Below, in pieces: positions 2,748 through 28,851 of a stretch of 64,000 nucleotides of DNA (position 1 is its first letter; every line of letters starts with the position of its first letter). The stretch is taken from positions 19,578-83,577 of IMG/VR virus record IMGVR_UViG_3300045996_001613. One strand, given 5' to 3'. The translations under genes were made by a program, and so were the position numbers. This DNA comes from a virus. The notes beneath the pieces were generated by a model. It was given only the letters and a program-made list of their open reading frames with translations. It ran no database searches and had not been told where the DNA came from.

Positions 2748-3472
2748 ACATCGCAGTGCTATTCGACGGCGCAGGGCTCGCACGACTCGGGCTAGAGCAG
2801 GCGGGGCATACGTGCACCGGATACGAGCTAGATCCGTGGAAGCACTACCTCTCGCAGTTCGTGGGCTCGGGGAATTCCGTGCTCGCGGACGTACGCGACG
2901 TGGACCTGTCCCCCTACGATGCAGTGTGGGCATCGCCCCCGTGCCAGTGGCACAGCAGCGCACGCACGCAAGGGGACCCGGTCTCGGGCTTCGCGACCGA
3001 TCTCCTAGAGTGGTCTCTGAACCTCGACGTGGGTGTCCTGTGGGTGGAGAACATCATGAGCCAGACTGCCAGCCTCAATACGTGGGGCACCAAGTACAAC
3101 GCGGCTCAGTTCCTATCCGTCCCCATCCAGAATCGCAACCGCATCGTCGGCGGTCACTATCGCGAGCCGTTTGTGTACGCGAGCTACCGGCGTACGTTCG
3201 CGGGGATCTGCCCCTGCATCACGGCCAGCGAGTACAAGGGCTGCGCCTCCGACACGCGCAGGGCGTCGCGCTACTACGGGCGTCGCCTGACTGTCGGGGA
3301 GTGTGCCGACCATCAGGGGCTCACCATTCCCCCCGAGTGGCACACCGTACCCGAGGGATTCACGCCGGGACGTTGGAGGCAGAATCTCTACGAGGCGATT
3401 GGTAACGGGGTCCCCGTCTACATGGCGCGTGGCTTCGGTGAGATGTACCCGGCGAAATCCAGGGGATTGTAA
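2744..3472 (+). CDS. DNA (cytosine-5) methyltransferase, compact
   Basis: Motif I LFDGAG, IV SPPCQ, VI VENI, VIII QNRNR, IX RRLTVGEC, X IGNGVP; GTGA overlap gives start 2744. Confidence 0.9.
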   Translation: MNIAVLFDGAGLARLGLEQAGHTCTGYELDPWKHYLSQFVGSGNSVLADVRDVDLSPYDAVWASPPCQWHSSARTQGDPVSGFATDLLEWSLNLDVGVLWVENIMSQTASLNTWGTKYNAAQFLSVPIQNRNRIVGGHYREPFVYASYRRTFAGICPCITASEYKGCASDTRRASRYYGRRLTVGECADHQGLTIPPEWHTVPEGFTPGRWRQNLYEAIGNGVPVYMARGFGEMYPAKSRGL

Positions 3473-3493
3473 CTGCCGGCACAAGCTCGAGAT

Positions 3494-3536
3494 TGTGAAC
3501 GAATTCACAGACAACGGTAGCCGAGTAGGAGATAAT
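3494..3536 (+). promoter_or_regulatory. CRP/FNR-type box with downstream -10 (GATAAT)
   Basis: TGTGAACGAATTCACA 3494-3509; GATAAT 3531-3536; 21-nt gap. Confidence 0.6.
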
Positions 3537-3589
3537 GCGGGAGCAATGAGAAGGACAACGACAAGGGGAGAGACATGTGAACTCAGAGG

Positions 3590-3890
3590 GGCGAGCCTGA
3601 CGGTCCTGACCCCAACAGGCGAGACGGTCGGAGTACCAGACCGGCGGGGATGTGGGCGCGAGCCCGTGCATGAAAGAGAGCACACCCAGCGAGGGCCGCT
3701 GGTAAGGAGGCTCACATCCCCTGATGGCGAGGCAGATACGGGCGCAGTGGTGCGAACGGCTCATGGGGCTGATCACCCCGGCAAGCCTAGTAGCACGGTG
3801 AAAATCCCACGGCTAACTGCCGTGCCGATGGCGACAATGGGGCTGATCACCCCGGAGTCGACCGGGAAAGCTGCGCCGGTATCTGCCCCG
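3590..3890 (+). ncRNA. Putative multibranched structured ncRNA (unknown class)
   Basis: Stems GGGGATGT/ACATCCCC and GGCAGATAC/GTATCTGCC enclose several hairpins, including two copies of ATGGGGCTGATCACCCCGG; no credible CDS. Confidence 0.6.
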
Positions 3891-3909
3891 ACCACGAATG
3901 GAGGAGCAC

Positions 3910-4092
3910 ATGAGACCGCCAGCACGACATACGGTGGACGGGGTGCACAAGCGCACCGGGATGATAGTCACGGTGAAGCTGGGCTTCGCCTCTCACCGGG
4001 ATGCGCACAACTACATAACCAAGCACCTGACCGAACTGCACGTCAGGGGAATAGACCCGGTGCACGTCGGGACGGACAGGACGGGCGCGTAA
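3910..4092 (+). CDS. Small hypothetical protein between ncRNAs
   Basis: GGAGGAG SD before ATG 3910; its stop lies inside the mini-tmRNA 5' end. Confidence 0.6.
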   Translation: MRPPARHTVDGVHKRTGMIVTVKLGFASHRDAHNYITKHLTELHVRGIDPVHVGTDRTGA

Positions 4093-4161
4093 TGGGTTCG
4101 ACGGGTGCAACGGGCGCGAGCGCCCAACACCCGGAGGAGAGTTCGATTCTCTCCGCGTCCA
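4083..4161 (+). ncRNA. Mini-tmRNA: tmRNA tRNA-like domain with no mRNA-like domain
   Basis: Acceptor GGGCGCG/CGCGTCC with G3.U70 and A73; unpaired D-region TAATGGGTTCGA; P2 CGGGTG/CACCCG; GAG linker; T-arm GAGAG-TTCGATT-CTCTC. Confidence 0.8.
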
Positions 4162-4164
4162 CTA

Positions 4165-4295
4165 CGAGTCCCGGCATGGTACGGGAGAGACACGCTGAAA
4201 CACCACGCACGGCCACTGCGGTAGTCATGACCCGCATGCTTTCAAAGTGTCTCTGGTTGAATATACGCGACTCTCCCACACCATGCCGGGGCTCG
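4165..4295 (+). ncRNA. Putative rod-like structured ncRNA
   Basis: CGAGTCCCGGCATGGT/ACCATGCCGGGGCTCG 16-bp stem, then GGGAGAG/CTCTCCC, AGAGACAC/GTGTCTCT, TGAAA/TTTCA and GCGG/CCGC. Confidence 0.6.
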
Positions 4296-4327
4296 GCTGT
4301 AGTCAACACCGACCGGGAGGTCTGACC

Positions 4328-4462
4328 GTGGACACTATGGACCTGCACAACTGGCGTGAATGGAGCGCAGAGCAGTTCGCCCTCGACGCGGAGGCCGAGG
4401 TCTCCGAGGACGAGATAGCCGCGAGCTACGCGGCCACGAACCCCCACGAGGAGGTAGAGTAA
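4328..4462 (+). CDS. Small acidic hypothetical protein
   Basis: GGAGGT SD before GTG 4328. Confidence 0.55.
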   Translation: MDTMDLHNWREWSAEQFALDAEAEVSEDEIAASYAATNPHEEVE

Positions 4463-4659
4463 TGACCGGAGTACACGGCCCACTGGTCGTCCGCGAGGTC
4501 TGGATCGTCGGGCCAGTGATGTCGGAGTTCGTCGGCTTCATGAACCGCGTAAATTCCCGCATCAAGGTCGGCAGGATAGCCGAGCTAAATGGGTGGGAGG
4601 TATGGGATCGCGAGATAAACGAGACACACGACACCTTTTGGCTGAGGGAGGCATCATGA
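4462..4659 (+). CDS. Hypothetical protein
   Basis: GGAGGT SD, TAATG coupling. Confidence 0.65.
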   Translation: MTGVHGPLVVREVWIVGPVMSEFVGFMNRVNSRIKVGRIAELNGWEVWDREINETHDTFWLREAS

Positions 4660-4823
4660 CCACCACGAGCATCGCGAAGGCCCGCCAACAACTCAAGCGG
4701 CAGTACCGGAAGATATCGACCGGCGTGCTCTATGGATGGATGGCCGTCTACCTCGTCGAGGACAACGAGTACATGTGCACCACAATCCGCGAGGTACTGC
4801 GGGAGAGGGGCGAGCAGATATGA
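4656..4823 (+). CDS. Small helical-hairpin hypothetical protein
   Basis: GGAGG SD, ATGA overlap. Confidence 0.65.
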   Translation: MTTTSIAKARQQLKRQYRKISTGVLYGWMAVYLVEDNEYMCTTIREVLRERGEQI

Positions 4824-5173
4824 TGCACCTAGAGTGGCATCTGGACAAGCTGAACGACGCGGCTAACGAACTAGCCCACAACGCCAAGCACCGCGAACTG
4901 ACCGAGGAGGAGATCGTCGAGTTCAAGCAGGAGTTCACCGACCAGATCCGCAACCTGCAGGACGAGGTATCGTCCCTCGGAGGACACCTGACCGACGCGG
5001 TAAACGAACTGTACGAAATGCTGCCGAAGTGCGAACAGTGCGACGAGATCCTGACCGAGGACAACATCGCGGACACGGCAGACCTACGAGACGCGAAGGT
5101 CTGCGCCGACTGCCAGTACGACATGGACCCCATGAACGACGTGAACTACGTCGGTCACCCGATGCACTACTAA
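4820..5173 (+). CDS. Coiled-coil plus CxxC..CxxC zinc-finger protein
   Basis: CEQC...CADC; ATGA overlap. Confidence 0.7.
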   Translation: MMHLEWHLDKLNDAANELAHNAKHRELTEEEIVEFKQEFTDQIRNLQDEVSSLGGHLTDAVNELYEMLPKCEQCDEILTEDNIADTADLRDAKVCADCQYDMDPMNDVNYVGHPMHY

Positions 5174-5174
5174 T

Positions 5175-5216
5175 TGTGAATTCGTTCACAGATATCACGG
5201 CACAATTTGTTACACT
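5175..5216 (+). promoter_or_regulatory. CRP/FNR-type box (inverted copy) with extended -10 TGnTACACT
   Basis: TGTGAATTCGTTCACA 5175-5190 is the exact reverse complement of the other two boxes; TACACT 5211-5216; 20-nt gap. Confidence 0.65.
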
Positions 5217-5253
5217 TGAGGTCAACGGTAAGGACGATCAGGAGGTAGGCAAG

Positions 5254-5874
5254 ATGCAGTACAAGGTGGACCCGAAGATCCAAAAGCTCTGCGACGAGGG
5301 CGTGAAGTACATCGCGGAGTTCTTGGATCTAGTCGACACCCGCAAGCTGTACGAGTTCAAGATCCGGCAGTCTGATAGCGCACGCGCCATCCCCTGCGCG
5401 TATGGCAACTGCAAGTCTCCGCGTCGCTCGTCGATTCTCGGTGGCGGCAGCGGCCAGACCGCGGGATTCCGCATCTCAGTCTCCCTCAAGGGCAGCGACG
5501 ACGATTTCCCGTGGGCTCCGGGCTCGTGGGGTCGACGGGGCTATCTCCGGCACGCGGGTGAAATCCACCACGGACATGTAGGCACTACGCTAGCCGAGCA
5601 GATGGTCTTCGTGTCCGGTCACGAGTTCCTGCACTACGCGGCCCTGTCGGGGCTGTGTCCGGTGCGATACAGCCAAGAGTACAACGCGGATCGGTTCGGA
5701 TACGATATGATGCATTCCTTCCGAGAAGGCGTCGATCCGGTCTTCCTCGCGGAACACTTCGATACCAACATCTGCCACGACCCCGGACACTACGCGCATC
5801 AGGTGCCTACGCGAATCGCGCATCAGCGAGCACCGTACGCGGCACTGCCCCCGACCATACGGAAGGGGATCTAG
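5254..5874 (+). CDS. Putative zinc metallopeptidase (HExxH)
   Basis: AGGAGGT SD before ATG 5254; GHEFLHY with downstream QEYNAD. Confidence 0.65.
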   Translation: MQYKVDPKIQKLCDEGVKYIAEFLDLVDTRKLYEFKIRQSDSARAIPCAYGNCKSPRRSSILGGGSGQTAGFRISVSLKGSDDDFPWAPGSWGRRGYLRHAGEIHHGHVGTTLAEQMVFVSGHEFLHYAALSGLCPVRYSQEYNADRFGYDMMHSFREGVDPVFLAEHFDTNICHDPGHYAHQVPTRIAHQRAPYAALPPTIRKGI

Positions 5875-5984
5875 TGGCCGTCACGCTGATCGCGATGCTG
5901 TTCATCGCGGTGTTCATCGGGCTACTGACCAAGCTGCCGGTAAGGTTCACCAACGAGTTCACAGGGGAGGACACCGATGATTGA
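5874..5984 (+). CDS. Small membrane protein
   Basis: TAGTG coupling; hydrophobic stretch TLIAMLFIAVFIGLL. Confidence 0.5.
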   Translation: MAVTLIAMLFIAVFIGLLTKLPVRFTNEFTGEDTDD

Positions 5985-6555
5985 TCCGATGAACGTCACC
6001 GACTTCGACCGCAGCGATGCAGAGCTAGAGGAGTTCTTTCTCTTCGCTGTGCTGGTCGCGAACAAGAACTCCGATAGGATGGCTCGGGCTCTGGATTTTC
6101 TGCTCCGGCAGGGTGAGCCGGGAGACTCCCCCTTTGACACGATCAGGCGCATGGTACTCGACGGCTCGATGCCCCTCCGCCTGATTCAGGCGAAGACCGG
6201 AGAGTATGGTCGACGCCTCAAGACCCTGACCGAGGTCGCGACCGGCATGGTGCCAAACCTCCGCAATGCGGAGCCGGAGGACCTAGAGCAGATCCACGGC
6301 GTCGGGCTCAAGACGGCACGATTCTTCCTCATGCACAGCAGGCGCAACAGCCAGTACGCCGCGATAGACACTCACATCCTCAAGTACATGAGGGAGTTCT
6401 ATGGGCACAAAGTTCCCAACCGTACGCCCACCAACCGGGAGGAGTACCGGGAGCTAGAGGAATGGTTTGTCTTGCAGTGCGCCATCGAGGGCGTCACCCC
6501 CGCGGCGAAGGACCTAGAGGTATGGAAGCTATACAGTGGGAGAGTAAGCGCATGA
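5977..6555 (+). CDS. HhH-GPD superfamily DNA glycosylase (OGG/endonuclease III-like)
   Basis: HhH motif LEQIHGVGLKTARFF and catalytic Asp in AAIDTHI. Confidence 0.8.
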   Translation: MIDPMNVTDFDRSDAELEEFFLFAVLVANKNSDRMARALDFLLRQGEPGDSPFDTIRRMVLDGSMPLRLIQAKTGEYGRRLKTLTEVATGMVPNLRNAEPEDLEQIHGVGLKTARFFLMHSRRNSQYAAIDTHILKYMREFYGHKVPNRTPTNREEYRELEEWFVLQCAIEGVTPAAKDLEVWKLYSGRVSA

Positions 6556-18272: not shown

Positions 18273-19589
18273 ATGCCTGATCGACCCTCGTTCCGCCACA
18301 ACCTAGACGCCGAAGACTACATCCTCGGAGCCATGATCACCAATCAGGGTATCCGCAAGCAGGCACTATCGGAGATGACACCCAAGGACTTCTACTCCGA
18401 GCAGAACCGCAACATCTTCATCGCCCTCACCGGACTGCATCAGTCCTCTCCGACCGTATCCGGTTGGGTAAACCCGAGAGATCTGGCCCTCGACAGCGTA
18501 GACGCGAGGAAGGTTGCGAACCTCATGGCCGCAGAGCCCTCGACGATCCGGTGGCGCGACTCCATGCAAGAGGTACGGCGACTCTCACAGATCCGGGATC
18601 TGGCTACCAATATGGCCGGTCTCAGCAAGGCGCTGATGGAGGAGGAGGACCCCGAGGCCATCGCGTCACGCTTCATGGGTACCCTAGAGGGACTGTTGTC
18701 CGGATCGCTGGCGCAGGGTGCCGAACACATATCAACGAAAACGCCGGCCTTTCTTGAGATTGCCAAGGAGGTACGAGAGAAGAAGGGACTCGTCGGCATA
18801 CCCTCTCGTTTGCCTATACTCGATAGGCATCTTCGGGGCTTCCGTCAAGGACACAACGTAGTGGTAGGAGCCCGCAGCGGACACGGCAAGACCACGCTCG
18901 CGACCACCATCGTCAAGAACGTCGCCTTACAGGGATACCGAGTGCTCGTGCAGTCTACGGAAATGACCCACGAGCAGTACATCGAACTCTTGGCCTGCGC
19001 CCATGCCAACGTATCCGAGCAGCAGTGGCAAGATGGCGAGATCAATGACGCCAAGTGGCGGCAGATCGAGAAGGCCACCGAGAAGCTAAATGACCTAGCC
19101 ATCTATACCGACGACTACGCAGGAGCCACGCCCGACATGCTACGTCGCAACATCGTACGTGTGCAGCCTGACCTCGTGGTCATAGACTACCTACAGCGCA
19201 TGAAGCTACCCCATACCCTCCGCGGACGGAGTGAGTACGAGGATGTCAGTACCCTGTCACTGGAAGTGGATCGGCTGAAGGGGATCTACAATGTGCCGCT
19301 GATCACCGTAGTGCAGTTGAGCCGCAAGTCGGAGGACCGCGATGATCACAGGCCCAGGATTTCCGATATCCGTTCCTCGGGACAGATCGAGCAGGATGCG
19401 AACACCATCCTACTGCTACATCGTCCGTCCAAGTATGACGAGGATGCGCCCTCTGATATGTCCATGCTGGAATGTGTGAAGAATCGCAGAGGTGCAGAGG
19501 ACTGGACGATAAAGTTATACAAGCCCGGAGGCGTGCCGTTCTTGACCGACGATAAGGGAAGGGGTGTAGGGTATGGCGCTGAGTATTAA
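18273..19589 (+). CDS. dnaB: Replicative DNA helicase
   Basis: Walker A GARSGHGKT, STEM, VVIDYLQ, VQLSR, DIRSSGQIEQDA, KNRRG. Confidence 0.95.
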   Translation: MPDRPSFRHNLDAEDYILGAMITNQGIRKQALSEMTPKDFYSEQNRNIFIALTGLHQSSPTVSGWVNPRDLALDSVDARKVANLMAAEPSTIRWRDSMQEVRRLSQIRDLATNMAGLSKALMEEEDPEAIASRFMGTLEGLLSGSLAQGAEHISTKTPAFLEIAKEVREKKGLVGIPSRLPILDRHLRGFRQGHNVVVGARSGHGKTTLATTIVKNVALQGYRVLVQSTEMTHEQYIELLACAHANVSEQQWQDGEINDAKWRQIEKATEKLNDLAIYTDDYAGATPDMLRRNIVRVQPDLVVIDYLQRMKLPHTLRGRSEYEDVSTLSLEVDRLKGIYNVPLITVVQLSRKSEDRDDHRPRISDIRSSGQIEQDANTILLLHRPSKYDEDAPSDMSMLECVKNRRGAEDWTIKLYKPGGVPFLTDDKGRGVGYGAEY

Positions 19590-23871: not shown

Positions 23872-25278
23872 TTGGCGTATAAGGCGATCATAGCGCGAGT
23901 CTACACCCGTCCACACCCCAACGCGGATCGCATCCAGCTTGGGGAGTGCCGCGGCTATCAGGTAATCGTGGGCAAGGATGTAGAGGACGGGACCCTCGGA
24001 GTCCTGTTCCCTCCGGACGGTCAGTTGTCCCACGAGTTCTGCCTTGCGAATGAATTGTATGCAAGGCACCCCGAGACCGGGGAGAAGATGAAGGGGTTCT
24101 TTGACAAGAACCGTAGGGTCAGGGCTCAGAAGTTTCGCGGAGAGAAGTCAGAGGCGTTCTGGACGGGTCTGGAGAGCATTTACAAGATGGCGGGACTGCG
24201 GGACTGGCGGAAGGATCTACCCGAGGGCAAGGAACTCGACGAGTACCTTGGCATGTCCCTATGTCAGAAGTACGTCACCCCCGCGACGCGCAGGGCTCAG
24301 GCCAACAAACAGCAGGCGGCTCGACGTGAGCTACCGAATTTCCACAAGCACTTCGACACGGATCAGTTGAAGAGGGAGATAGACTACATACCCGAGGGGG
24401 CGTTGCTGTACTTCACGGAGAAGTTACATGGCACGTCTCAGCGCAGCGCATACCTCACGGTCGAGTCTGACCACAAGCTGCCGTGGTTGCAGAGGCTCGG
24501 GTTGTGGTTGAGCCGCATTCCTTTTGCACCCCCAACGCAAGACGAACACCTGCTAGGCACGCGCAACGTAGTCCTCGGTCGGTACGAGGGCAAGAGCTAC
24601 TACGGATCTGAGGGGTTTCGGTATCGGCACCATGACCGCATTAAGGACAAGCTGCACCTTGGAGAGACGGTGTACTACGAGGTTGTCGGGTTTACCGGGC
24701 CTATCTCAGGAGTGCCCGAAGACCCCTTCCGGGCGTGGGACGCGAACGTCGCGCCGATCATGCCCGCGGTCAGCACCAAGGCGCTAAGAGACCATTGGGT
24801 GTCTTCTCCTGATCAGAAGGTTGCCGAAAGCGTCAAGGGCCGGTTTCCCGAGATGTACGGCGACACTATGTGGTACACGTACGGCAATTGGGAAGCGGAC
24901 AGTCCTGCAGCCCCTCGTGCGATGGGTGGATCGGAGATCTACGTCTACCGCATCACGCAGCAGAATGCGCAGGGCATCGTGCTCGACCTATCGTGGGAAC
25001 AGGTGAAGGGACGGTGCGAGGAGTTGGGCGTCCCGCATGTGCCAGAACTGGCGGCACACAAGCACCACTGGAGAACGGAAGCCCTTATGGAACATGCGGA
25101 ACAACTGGCCGAGGGACCCTCGACACTCGACAGGACTCACATACGCGAAGGCGTATGTGTCCGTTGGGAGAAGGGAAAGAAGATAGGTATACTAAAGCAC
25201 AAGTCATTCGAGTTTCTAGTGCTGGAGGGCGTGGTGAAGACCGACGAGAACTATGTAGACTTGGAGGAATCCTCGTGA
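23872..25278 (+). CDS. RNA ligase, Rnl2/DRB0094-like
   Basis: N-terminal PHPNADRIQL domain; motif I TEKLHGTS, YYEVVG, REGVCVR, LKHKS. Confidence 0.9.
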   Translation: MAYKAIIARVYTRPHPNADRIQLGECRGYQVIVGKDVEDGTLGVLFPPDGQLSHEFCLANELYARHPETGEKMKGFFDKNRRVRAQKFRGEKSEAFWTGLESIYKMAGLRDWRKDLPEGKELDEYLGMSLCQKYVTPATRRAQANKQQAARRELPNFHKHFDTDQLKREIDYIPEGALLYFTEKLHGTSQRSAYLTVESDHKLPWLQRLGLWLSRIPFAPPTQDEHLLGTRNVVLGRYEGKSYYGSEGFRYRHHDRIKDKLHLGETVYYEVVGFTGPISGVPEDPFRAWDANVAPIMPAVSTKALRDHWVSSPDQKVAESVKGRFPEMYGDTMWYTYGNWEADSPAAPRAMGGSEIYVYRITQQNAQGIVLDLSWEQVKGRCEELGVPHVPELAAHKHHWRTEALMEHAEQLAEGPSTLDRTHIREGVCVRWEKGKKIGILKHKSFEFLVLEGVVKTDENYVDLEESS

Positions 25279-27852: not shown

Positions 27853-28851
27853 TTACTGGTTATTAGCGCAGCGCACTATGTTATCGGGCAGTTCGCAGCC
27901 CTTGAACGTCTCCCCGTTGAAGTCATTGTTCACCACGTCTATGTTAGACAGGTTTACGCGATCCGACCGGCCCGAGTCTGACGCAATCCCCGCGAGGTTC
28001 TTGGCGTTGTTGTCAAACACGTTGCCCTGCACCAGCGCGTTCTGAGAGTCGCGTATACTGACGCCTCCGCGGGTAGCCTCGGTCGAGTTGCCATGTATGT
28101 AGTTATCCTCGATCAGAGCCCCGCCGCTGCAGTTCTCATAGCGCACACCGCCGCGTGTGTTGCCTTCTACGTCGACGTTATGAATCCAGAACCCGTTAGG
28201 ATGGGTGGAACTTGGTGTGCAGCGCACGTCTCCCCATATGCCGTTGCCCTCATTGTCGTGCGCCCATCCACCGGACACCTCGATCACATTGATCGACTTG
28301 ATACCCGAGGACGTGAAGCCGAGGGCCGCGGCGGAACCGTTGTTGTCGAACTCGACGTCAAAGAACTTGCCATTGGCGTTACTTACGCCCATAGCTTCAT
28401 TGTTCGTGAACCGAGAGTTACGGACCACGGTGTTCTGTCCCGCGGAGCCTAGAGCTAATCCTGCACCACTGCCCGCGGACCCATCAAAGTTAGCCCCCTG
28501 TACTTGCACCCAATTTTGCGCATAGGGACCCTCCTTTGGCTTGATCACCTGATCGACGTTGTTAGTGCCGTTGACGATGCTAGTGATGTTCTCCGGATTG
28601 GTGCCGGCGACCGGACGGTTAGACACGGTGCCGGGTACCCCCACGAGTTCGTCTCCCTTGCGGGGCGCGATGGTCGCGGAAGTATTGTACGTACAGGACC
28701 CGAGCTTGAATGTGGTGCCGATGTCCTTGGCGTCGTTATTCACCACATTCGCGAGGTTCGACCCGCAGGGCACGTTGACCGTACGCGAAGCGCCCATCGA
28801 GAAGACCGCGACCACCGCGATCATCAGGGCTATTAGCATTACTTTCCTCAT
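27853..28851 (-). CDS. Secreted right-handed parallel beta-helix protein
   Basis: Signal peptide MRKVMLIALMIAVVAVFSMGA; repeats such as HDNEGNGIWGD, EGNTRGGVRYE, IEDNYIHGN. Confidence 0.8.
   Translation of the reverse strand: MRKVMLIALMIAVVAVFSMGASRTVNVPCGSNLANVVNNDAKDIGTTFKLGSCTYNTSATIAPRKGDELVGVPGTVSNRPVAGTNPENITSIVNGTNNVDQVIKPKEGPYAQNWVQVQGANFDGSAGSGAGLALGSAGQNTVVRNSRFTNNEAMGVSNANGKFFDVEFDNNGSAAALGFTSSGIKSINVIEVSGGWAHDNEGNGIWGDVRCTPSSTHPNGFWIHNVDVEGNTRGGVRYENCSGGALIEDNYIHGNSTEATRGGVSIRDSQNALVQGNVFDNNAKNLAGIASDSGRSDRVNLSNIDVVNNDFNGETFKGCELPDNIVRCANNQ

Follow-up and report, generated by a model that had tools for sequence, protein, structure and literature searches.

A probable tRNA-like-domain-only tmRNA gene of the DS6A kind in a soil phage and the phage RNA family to which it belongs

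We analysed a stretch of 64,000 nucleotides from the IMG/VR virus record IMGVR_UViG_3300045996_001613 (positions 19,578 to 83,577; hereafter the window). It very probably carries, at 4083–4161 of the plus strand, the gene of a transfer-messenger RNA (tmRNA) that lacks the coding sequence (CDS) and is reduced to the tRNA-like domain (TLD), of the kind present in phage DS6A (probability about 0.93). This RNA, here called mini-tmRNA, belongs to a large phage family with covarying helices. The initial annotation of the window knew of no phage example. The TLD-only tmRNA of DS6A is, however, already in print (PMC4131195; PMC11915505), and the window element is a further case of this largely unannotated kind of phage RNA, not the first one. 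'Mycobacterium phage DS6A (TLD only)' is listed by Hudson, Lau and Williams (2014; PMC4131195), and the element is held under tmID 11587 at the tmRNA Website and appears in the tmRNA database paper of 2025 (PMC11915505). In the literature searched, mentions of an RNA of this type in phages were confined to DS6A, and a large family was nowhere described.

Structure of the mini-tmRNA gene

The seven base pairs of the acceptor stem comprise G1-C72, G2-C71, the wobble pair G3.U70 and four further Watson-Crick pairs. The structural features described in the initial annotation, namely acceptor, discriminator A4161, D-region, helix, hairpin, linker and T-arm, were all found at the positions it had given (Table 1). 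Its reading of them as an alanine-type tmRNA TLD from which tag frame and pseudoknots are absent is upheld, with only 20 nt lying between the two strands of helix P2. It was also right that CCA is not encoded, as in the tRNAs of this phage: the gene is followed by the trailer CTA (4162–4164), and CCA is encoded in 0 of the 5 tRNA genes of the genome.

The minimum free energy (MFE) fold contained all helices described, with the exceptions that the seventh acceptor pair was open and that a sixth pair was added to the T-arm. Its energy was −38.6 kcal/mol (z-score −2.73), which was equalled or bettered by 3 of 200 shuffled sequences. The mini-tmRNA is present once in the phage genome. In soil metagenome runs from three studies (six runs with matching contigs, all of soil DNA), the assembled contigs were identical to the window sequence across the mini-tmRNA; they showed no variants and so offer no natural compensatory changes. 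Because the same sequence was assembled in the soil runs of three studies, the mini-tmRNA is not an assembly artefact.

Detection by covariance models and gene finders

The Rfam tmRNA check suggested in the initial annotation gave a match. In a 98-nt scan the model RF00023 aligned to 4083–4164 from model position 1 to 374 with 47.2 bits (E 2.3e-18), and a genome-level search returned the same coordinates with 55.7 bits. The alignment contains a local end at which 312 model positions are replaced by 20 nt, and a full round of trans-translation is for this reason impossible. Model positions 1–25 and 338–374 were aligned at high posterior probability, and nearly all conserved TLD positions agree with the consensus.

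Routine searches did not recover the gene. When Rfam was run over the whole window with gathering thresholds, it reported three tRNAs only and not the mini-tmRNA, and a 451-nt scan recovered the T-arm alone. ARAGORN, the other tool suggested initially, called no tmRNA: at default settings it reported tRNAs only, with no tag peptide. Lowering its score threshold to 80% gave 42 low-quality permuted calls, which we regard as noise. The tRNA model RF00005 found the five tRNAs of the genome and not the mini-tmRNA (E 0.001 or better). The mitochondrial tmRNA model RF02544 gave no match either, a result that is uninformative because the control search was silent in 14 of 14 genomes. A blastn search of the mini-tmRNA returned only short tRNA-like matches and a match to the T-arm of DS6A.

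A large family of phage mini-tmRNAs

The first pattern used on IMG/VR (TTCGACGG, CCGGA and T-loop fixed, 15–45 nt apart) left the acceptor stem unconstrained and returned 33 loci. The same architecture was present in 30 of these 33, which scored 46–87 bits with a covariance model, R1, that had been built from 8 sequences of equal D-loop length, including the window; tRNAs in the same loci scored at most 25 bits. No R1 match was obtained for the other three loci (L010, L013 and L024). A MAFFT alignment (A1) mis-registers the 5′ end and was not used for counts. Two broader IMG/VR patterns, which impose much of G3.U70 and A73, gave at least 175 new loci, and R1 matched 168 of those listed at E 1e-5 or better. 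Including the window and DS6A, the family comprises at least 201 matching loci and at least 167 distinct sequences, with lengths of 63–92 nt and a mode of 79 nt. When the first pattern was applied to genome contigs the matches were mostly due to chance, R1 matching 9 of the 80 loci tested.

Among the matches listed, the nearest relative of the window element is 77% identical. R1 gave the window element 86.3 bits, a score obtained with the window in its training set. A second model (R2), trained on 95 phage sequences from which both the window and DS6A had been left out, scored the window element at 71.1 bits (E 5e-16) and the DS6A element at 72.3 bits, compared with 27.3 bits for a full-length tmRNA and 15 bits or less for the tRNAs of the window. 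Of the 167 distinct sequences listed, 45 encode CCA and 159 form one central hairpin in the MFE fold, most commonly with a 4-nt loop. Two IMG/VR contigs each hold two different copies, L030 at 1565-1638 and 5111-5183, and L229 at 5-81 and 1317-1392.

Covariation and alanine identity

For the analysis of covariation, 23 distinct sequences from the acceptor-unconstrained set were aligned (A4). Standard pairs occupied 97.0% of the cells, compared with 75.2% in shuffled alignments, and both sides changed in 12 of 18 pairs; 0 of 500 shuffles reached the observed values. Sliding the pairing partners lowered pairing to 36–55%. In an alignment of 82 distinct sequences from the second set (A6), 98.5% of the cells were paired, with 470 double-change cells versus 142 in shuffles. 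A4 and A6 were both fitted to the model, which favours structure, and an anchor-based parse made without alignment gave the same compensatory changes. Such changes occur in all three helices across the family. The homolog covariance model proposed in the initial annotation hence shows strong covariation, and homologs devoid of covariation and of G3.U70, named there as grounds for abandoning its reading, were not what we found.

G1-C72, G2-C71, G3.U70 and A73 were invariant in all 23 distinct sequences of the acceptor-unconstrained set. G3.U70 and A73 are also present in the cultured Streptomyces phages LuckySocke and Shaeky, which were found by BLAST. From this pattern of conservation, alanine charging appears to be under selection.

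Comparison with the DS6A element

We located the DS6A element at 28478-28557 of NC_023744, where it is unannotated between gp33 and gp34; the window element likewise lies unannotated between phage protein genes. Both have a 7-bp acceptor with G3.U70 and A73, a stemless D-loop, a short P2 with a small hairpin, the T-loop TTCGATT and no encoded CCA, and the trailer CTAC is the same as in the window. The sequences have nevertheless diverged: the D-loop is GGTGGTCGAC in DS6A and GGGTTCGAC in the window, and the linker before the T-arm is CAC in DS6A and GAG in the window. The DS6A element is absent from the 15 nearest relatives listed (down to 71% identity). The phages differ too, the window phage being an 83.6-kb soil metagenome phage with no close cultured relative and probably with a different host, and in the window phage the upstream gene runs into the RNA gene, where it has its stop codon.

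Genomic context and annotation across the family

A tRNA gene lies within 300 nt in 24 of the 166 distinct members listed, on the same strand in 23 cases and within 17 nt in 14. In LuckySocke (L345:1501-1578) and Shaeky (L346:1491-1569) the mini-tmRNA occupies unannotated gaps inside tRNA arrays and scores 86.0 and 80.7 bits, respectively, with R2. BLAST matches suggest that GiJojo, pSt2308, Alone3, BRock and Riptide carry mini-tmRNAs too. There is no conserved protein neighbour: the largest cluster of neighbouring proteins was found in 17 of the 167 representative loci examined.

ARAGORN calls of any kind overlap 5 of the 166 distinct members listed. At least in L008, L012 and L038 the calls are false long tmRNAs built on the 3′ end of the mini gene; the 343-nt call L008:2976-3318, for example, has a spurious 5′ end in an apparently protein-coding stretch. 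False long calls of this type may conceal mini-tmRNAs in existing annotations.

Two side observations concern contigs binned as bacterial. On a short contig assigned to a cyanobacterial metagenome-assembled genome (MAG), which is probably a phage contig, a mini-tmRNA (L080:828-904) directly follows a CCA-ending tRNA gene. Four MAGs of Candidatus Poribacteria have nearly identical TLD-only tmRNA-like genes of 83–86 nt on large chromosomal contigs, with RF00023 scores of 66–68 bits (L044:5102-5184, L104:6102-6184, L041:1361-1443 and L106:6618-6700; also L340-L343 and L336-L339). Each of the four also has a normal full-length tmRNA of 176–185 bits, so that this bacterial lineage, too, apparently retains a tag-less copy next to its real tmRNA.

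The phage genome and the surroundings of the gene

The final 64 kb of a complete virus record make up the window; the record is 83,577 bp long, with direct terminal repeats and a GC content near 57%. The genome has genes for a DnaB-type helicase, two DNA methyltransferases, an RNA ligase, an exonuclease and tail proteins, as well as five tRNA genes. In the complete genome we found no SmpB, RF-1/ArfB, Pth or CCA-adding enzyme domain and no tyrosine or serine recombinase. Neither Megablast of window positions 3000-6000 against cultured phages nor a search with a second phage protein yielded a match. The RNA ligase gene lies at 23872-25278 of the window (PHROG 968, E 5e-58), which may point to the repair of RNAs, such as cleaved tRNAs, in a phage that carries a mini-tmRNA.

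Upstream of the mini-tmRNA is a gene with a good ribosome-binding site for a 60-amino-acid protein that has no PHROG family and for which no relative was found in IMG/VR. Its TAA stop codon (4090–4092) lies 10 nt inside the mini-tmRNA gene, so cleavage by RNase P at G4083 would leave its mRNA without a stop codon. Among the 165 loci examined, 20 have a same-strand open reading frame (ORF) of at least 60 codons whose stop lies 1–30 nt inside the RNA gene, the overlap being a single base in eight; a stop at least 7 nt inside the gene occurs in this phage and in 11 more loci.

The imperfect hairpin that follows the gene may act as a terminator or as a site of RNase III-type processing. No U-tract terminator was found after it, and the fold of 4083–4300 has a z-score of −4.92. 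Farther upstream stands the palindromic box TGTGAACGAATTCACA with its −10-like element, where transcription of the unit that includes the mini-tmRNA likely begins. The box is present in 3 copies in the window versus 0.1 expected, and its repetition looks like that of an early-region operator or activator site. Between this promoter-like site and the 60-amino-acid gene is a structured stretch with no coding signature in any frame and no Rfam match, in which a 20-nt inverted repeat (3728–3747 and 3871–3890) encloses two identical 19-mers, ATGGGGCTGATCACCCCGG, at 3763 and 3837.

Table 1. Coordinates of the parts of the mini-tmRNA gene and of neighbouring features in the window
Feature	Position	Strand	Remarks
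TLD-only (CDS-less) tmRNA gene	4083..4161	+	79 nt, G1 to discriminator A73
Acceptor stem, 5′ strand GGGCGCG	4083..4089	+	G3 is the wobble partner of U70
Stemless D-region TAATGGGTTCGA	4090..4101	+	GG and UUCGA match the tmRNA consensus (RF00023 consensus alignment)
Helix P2, 5′ strand CGGGTG	4102..4107	+	Fold; P2 pairs covary in the family
20-nt insert	4108..4127	+	In the place of the mRNA-like and pseudoknot domain
Insert hairpin GGGCG-CGAG-CGCCC	4112..4125	+	Fold
Helix P2, 3′ strand CACCCG	4128..4133	+	Fold
Linker GAG	4134..4136	+	Sequence
T-arm GAGAG-TTCGATT-CTCTC	4137..4153	+	Fold and RF00023 alignment; T-stem pairs covary
Acceptor stem, 3′ strand CGCGTCC, and discriminator A4161	4154..4161	+	CGCGTCC at 4154-4160
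Upstream 60-aa gene	3910..4092	+	GGAGGAG before ATG; codon-position GC 0.62/0.44/0.79, like the known genes of this phage
Imperfect hairpin, 131 nt	4165..4295	+	Arms of 30 nt with 83% complementarity; separated from the RNA gene by 3 nt
Palindromic box TGTGAACGAATTCACA	3494..3509	+	Followed by −10-like GATAAT ending at 3536; likely start of transcription unit (3494..3536)
TGTGAACGAATTCACA or its reverse complement	1248-1263, 3494-3509, 5175-5190		At gene boundaries
Structured non-coding stretch, about 300 nt	3583..3890	+	z-score −5.37; between promoter-like site and 60-aa gene

Discussion

Interference with trans-translation by way of SmpB is the most probable main function of the mini-tmRNA (about 0.6). 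It would be transcribed within an early-region unit that starts near 3540, freed by host RNase P and 3′ trimming enzymes in the way tRNAs are, tailed by the host CCA-adding enzyme and charged with alanine by the host alanyl-tRNA synthetase (AlaRS). The proximity of family members to tRNA genes, mostly on the same strand, speaks for such tRNA-like processing. It would then bind host SmpB and, when charged, also EF-Tu, all protein partners being supplied by the host. Having neither a resume codon nor a tag frame, it could not complete trans-translation and would thus be a competitor of host tmRNA, both for SmpB and for ribosomes that have stalled. During infection, host tagging and the proteolysis of nascent chains would be suppressed as a result. 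SmpB sequestration that blocks host trans-translation, the first of the functions proposed in the initial annotation, is also the function suggested for the DS6A element (PMC4131195), and an RNA of the DS6A type is said to inhibit host tmRNA in Escherichia coli, with reference to Mao et al. 2009 (PMC4131195; PMC11915505).

Several points weigh against this reading of the element and of its function. The RF00023 score was only just above the gathering score in one of two runs (47.2 vs 47), and pieces of bacterial genomes of 71–76 nt reach 32–48 bits in the genome-level search with this model. As short bacterial pieces score in this range, the RF00023 score alone cannot decide membership. In the 167-sequence set, G3.U70 and A73 are largely imposed by the search patterns and hence uninformative. 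The closest helicase of a cultured phage is only 30.6% identical (tblastn). As to what was tested for the inhibition of host tmRNA, DS6A itself or 'a similar molecule', the two papers that mention it disagree (PMC4131195; PMC11915505). Finally, this inhibition is reported not to need charging (PMC4131195), so that pure titration of SmpB leaves the invariance of G3.U70 and A73 unexplained. That invariance points to a charging-dependent role on the ribosome and favours a rescue-type function.

A role on the ribosome, whether tag-less rescue or trapping, is thus a serious rival to SmpB interference, although we hold tag-less rescue itself to be clearly the less probable of the two. In such a rescue the charged mini-tmRNA would enter stalled ribosomes together with host SmpB and take over the nascent chain on its alanine; the complex would be resolved through drop-off followed by hydrolysis of the peptidyl-tRNA, through release of the ArfB type or in another round of rescue, and the phage would gain recycled ribosomes and proteins that are not tagged for degradation. 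The strict conservation of G3.U70 and A73 where the search did not impose them (23/23, as well as LuckySocke and Shaeky) speaks for it, as does the reported in vitro transfer of peptides to TLD-only RNA (PMC3895274), and the CDS-less tmRNAs that persist in organelles are thought to help with incomplete mRNAs (PMC11915505). The position of the upstream stop codon inside the RNA gene, here and in the 11 further loci, fits as well, since excision of the RNA would create non-stop mRNAs. Against this stand the release step for a stop-less peptidyl-Ala-TLD, which is not known, the lack of an RF-1/ArfB or Pth domain of the phage's own, and the fact that the sole phenotype reported for such an RNA in these sources is inhibition of tmRNA (PMC4131195; PMC11915505). 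A more specific and rather doubtful version is that the mini-tmRNA works on the ribosome by adding one untemplated alanine, or several in successive rounds, to stalled chains and is coupled to its own substrate. The cut at G4083 would then remove the stop of the 60-amino-acid gene, whose product could be finished only via tag-less rescue and would escape the degradation tag. If true, this would represent a self-contained 'non-stop gene plus private rescuer' module.

A function outside trans-translation is improbable on present evidence. The element could be a processing or stabilising signal that offers entry points for RNase P and the CCA-adding enzyme to the RNAs of its operon, or a decoy for host RNases or for defence proteins that recognise tmRNA or tRNA. 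In this phage it indeed stands between the 300-nt structured RNA with the small gene on one side and the 131-nt hairpin on the other, the upstream gene overlaps it by 10 nt, and some defence systems have domains that resemble SmpB and are predicted to bind tmRNA (PMC11090510). However, the structures on either side are not shared across the family, and contexts differ widely, as the largest neighbour cluster of 17 in 167 loci illustrates; moreover, conservation falls on the AlaRS identity set, the tmRNA D-loop, the T-loop and the P2 junction, which is awkward for a mere processing signal. It is very unlikely that the gene is a remnant in decay that lacks a function, whether left over by deletion from a formerly full-length phage tmRNA or derived from host ssrA as an attP-type fragment. 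Other actinophages do have full-length tmRNAs, with tag peptides annotated in phages of Streptomyces and Mycobacterium, and ssrA is a common integration site at which fragments arise (PMC4131195), but both halves of the TLD are present with perfect pairing, the element scores on a par with the best family members, compensatory changes affect all three helices of the family, the complete genome is devoid of a tyrosine or serine recombinase, and the sequence is identical in the soil runs of three studies. Hardly credible at all is a tRNA-Ala that has lost its D-stem, which would account for the alanine identity elements and the normal T-arm. The element has no anticodon arm, its central helix closing on the 4-nt loop CGAG, and RF00005 is silent there; in the 167 distinct sequences listed, a size of 7 nt was counted for only 6 of the 169 central loops, and an NGC anticodon stands in the middle of none of these. 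With no 7-nt anticodon loop in the window element, this candidate was rejected for it. Even taken together, remnant and tRNA have very little likelihood.

Full-length one-piece tmRNAs occur in cluster C mycobacteriophages and some Streptomyces phages. In comparison with the one-piece tmRNA described by RF00023, the TLD of the window element agrees at nearly all consensus positions, including the alanine identity set, whereas the resume codon, tag frame, stop codon and pseudoknots PK1–PK4 are missing. CDS-less tmRNAs are also found in jakobid mitochondria (RF02544) and some plastids (PMC11915505). Those of jakobids and of Mallomonadaceae plastids resemble the mini-tmRNA in being cut down to the tRNA-like part without a tag frame, but they are AT-rich, were reduced independently and are the only tmRNA of the organelle, whereas the phage RNA would act beside the tmRNA of its host. 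Two-piece tmRNAs (RF04321), known from Alphaproteobacteria, cyanobacteria and marine phages, are another non-standard form that phages can carry, Melnitz being an example (PMC9004378). The initial annotation had named a two-piece tmRNA as the alternative, and the complete genome does not bear this out: the gene has the standard 5′-to-3′ order, both strands of P2 pair within one molecule, no coding piece is present in the genome and RF04321 gave no match in the complete 83.6-kb genome. The two-piece form was consequently rejected. Synthetic TLD-only fragments are reported to accept peptide on stalled ribosomes in the presence of SmpB and EF-Tu (Shimizu and Ueda 2006, cited in PMC3895274). They have the same minimal content as the mini-tmRNA but are laboratory constructs from bacterial tmRNA, whereas the window element occurs naturally and is conserved as a phage gene.

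For ribosome rescue and quality control, bacteria depend mainly on trans-translation, which is under investigation as a drug target. The published record of phage RNAs of this kind consists of one phage, DS6A, and a few sentences; the same RNA is present here in a distant soil phage, within a large family that escapes routine annotation; ARAGORN overlaps few of its members, and Rfam with default filters overlooked the element in the 64-kb window. The strict conservation of alanine identity suggests that the published idea of SmpB titration is incomplete, and the cultured Streptomyces phages make the mini-tmRNA experimentally tractable. A natural and widespread phage RNA that hijacks or blocks trans-translation would constitute a ready-made tool and a new layer of the conflict between phages and their hosts.

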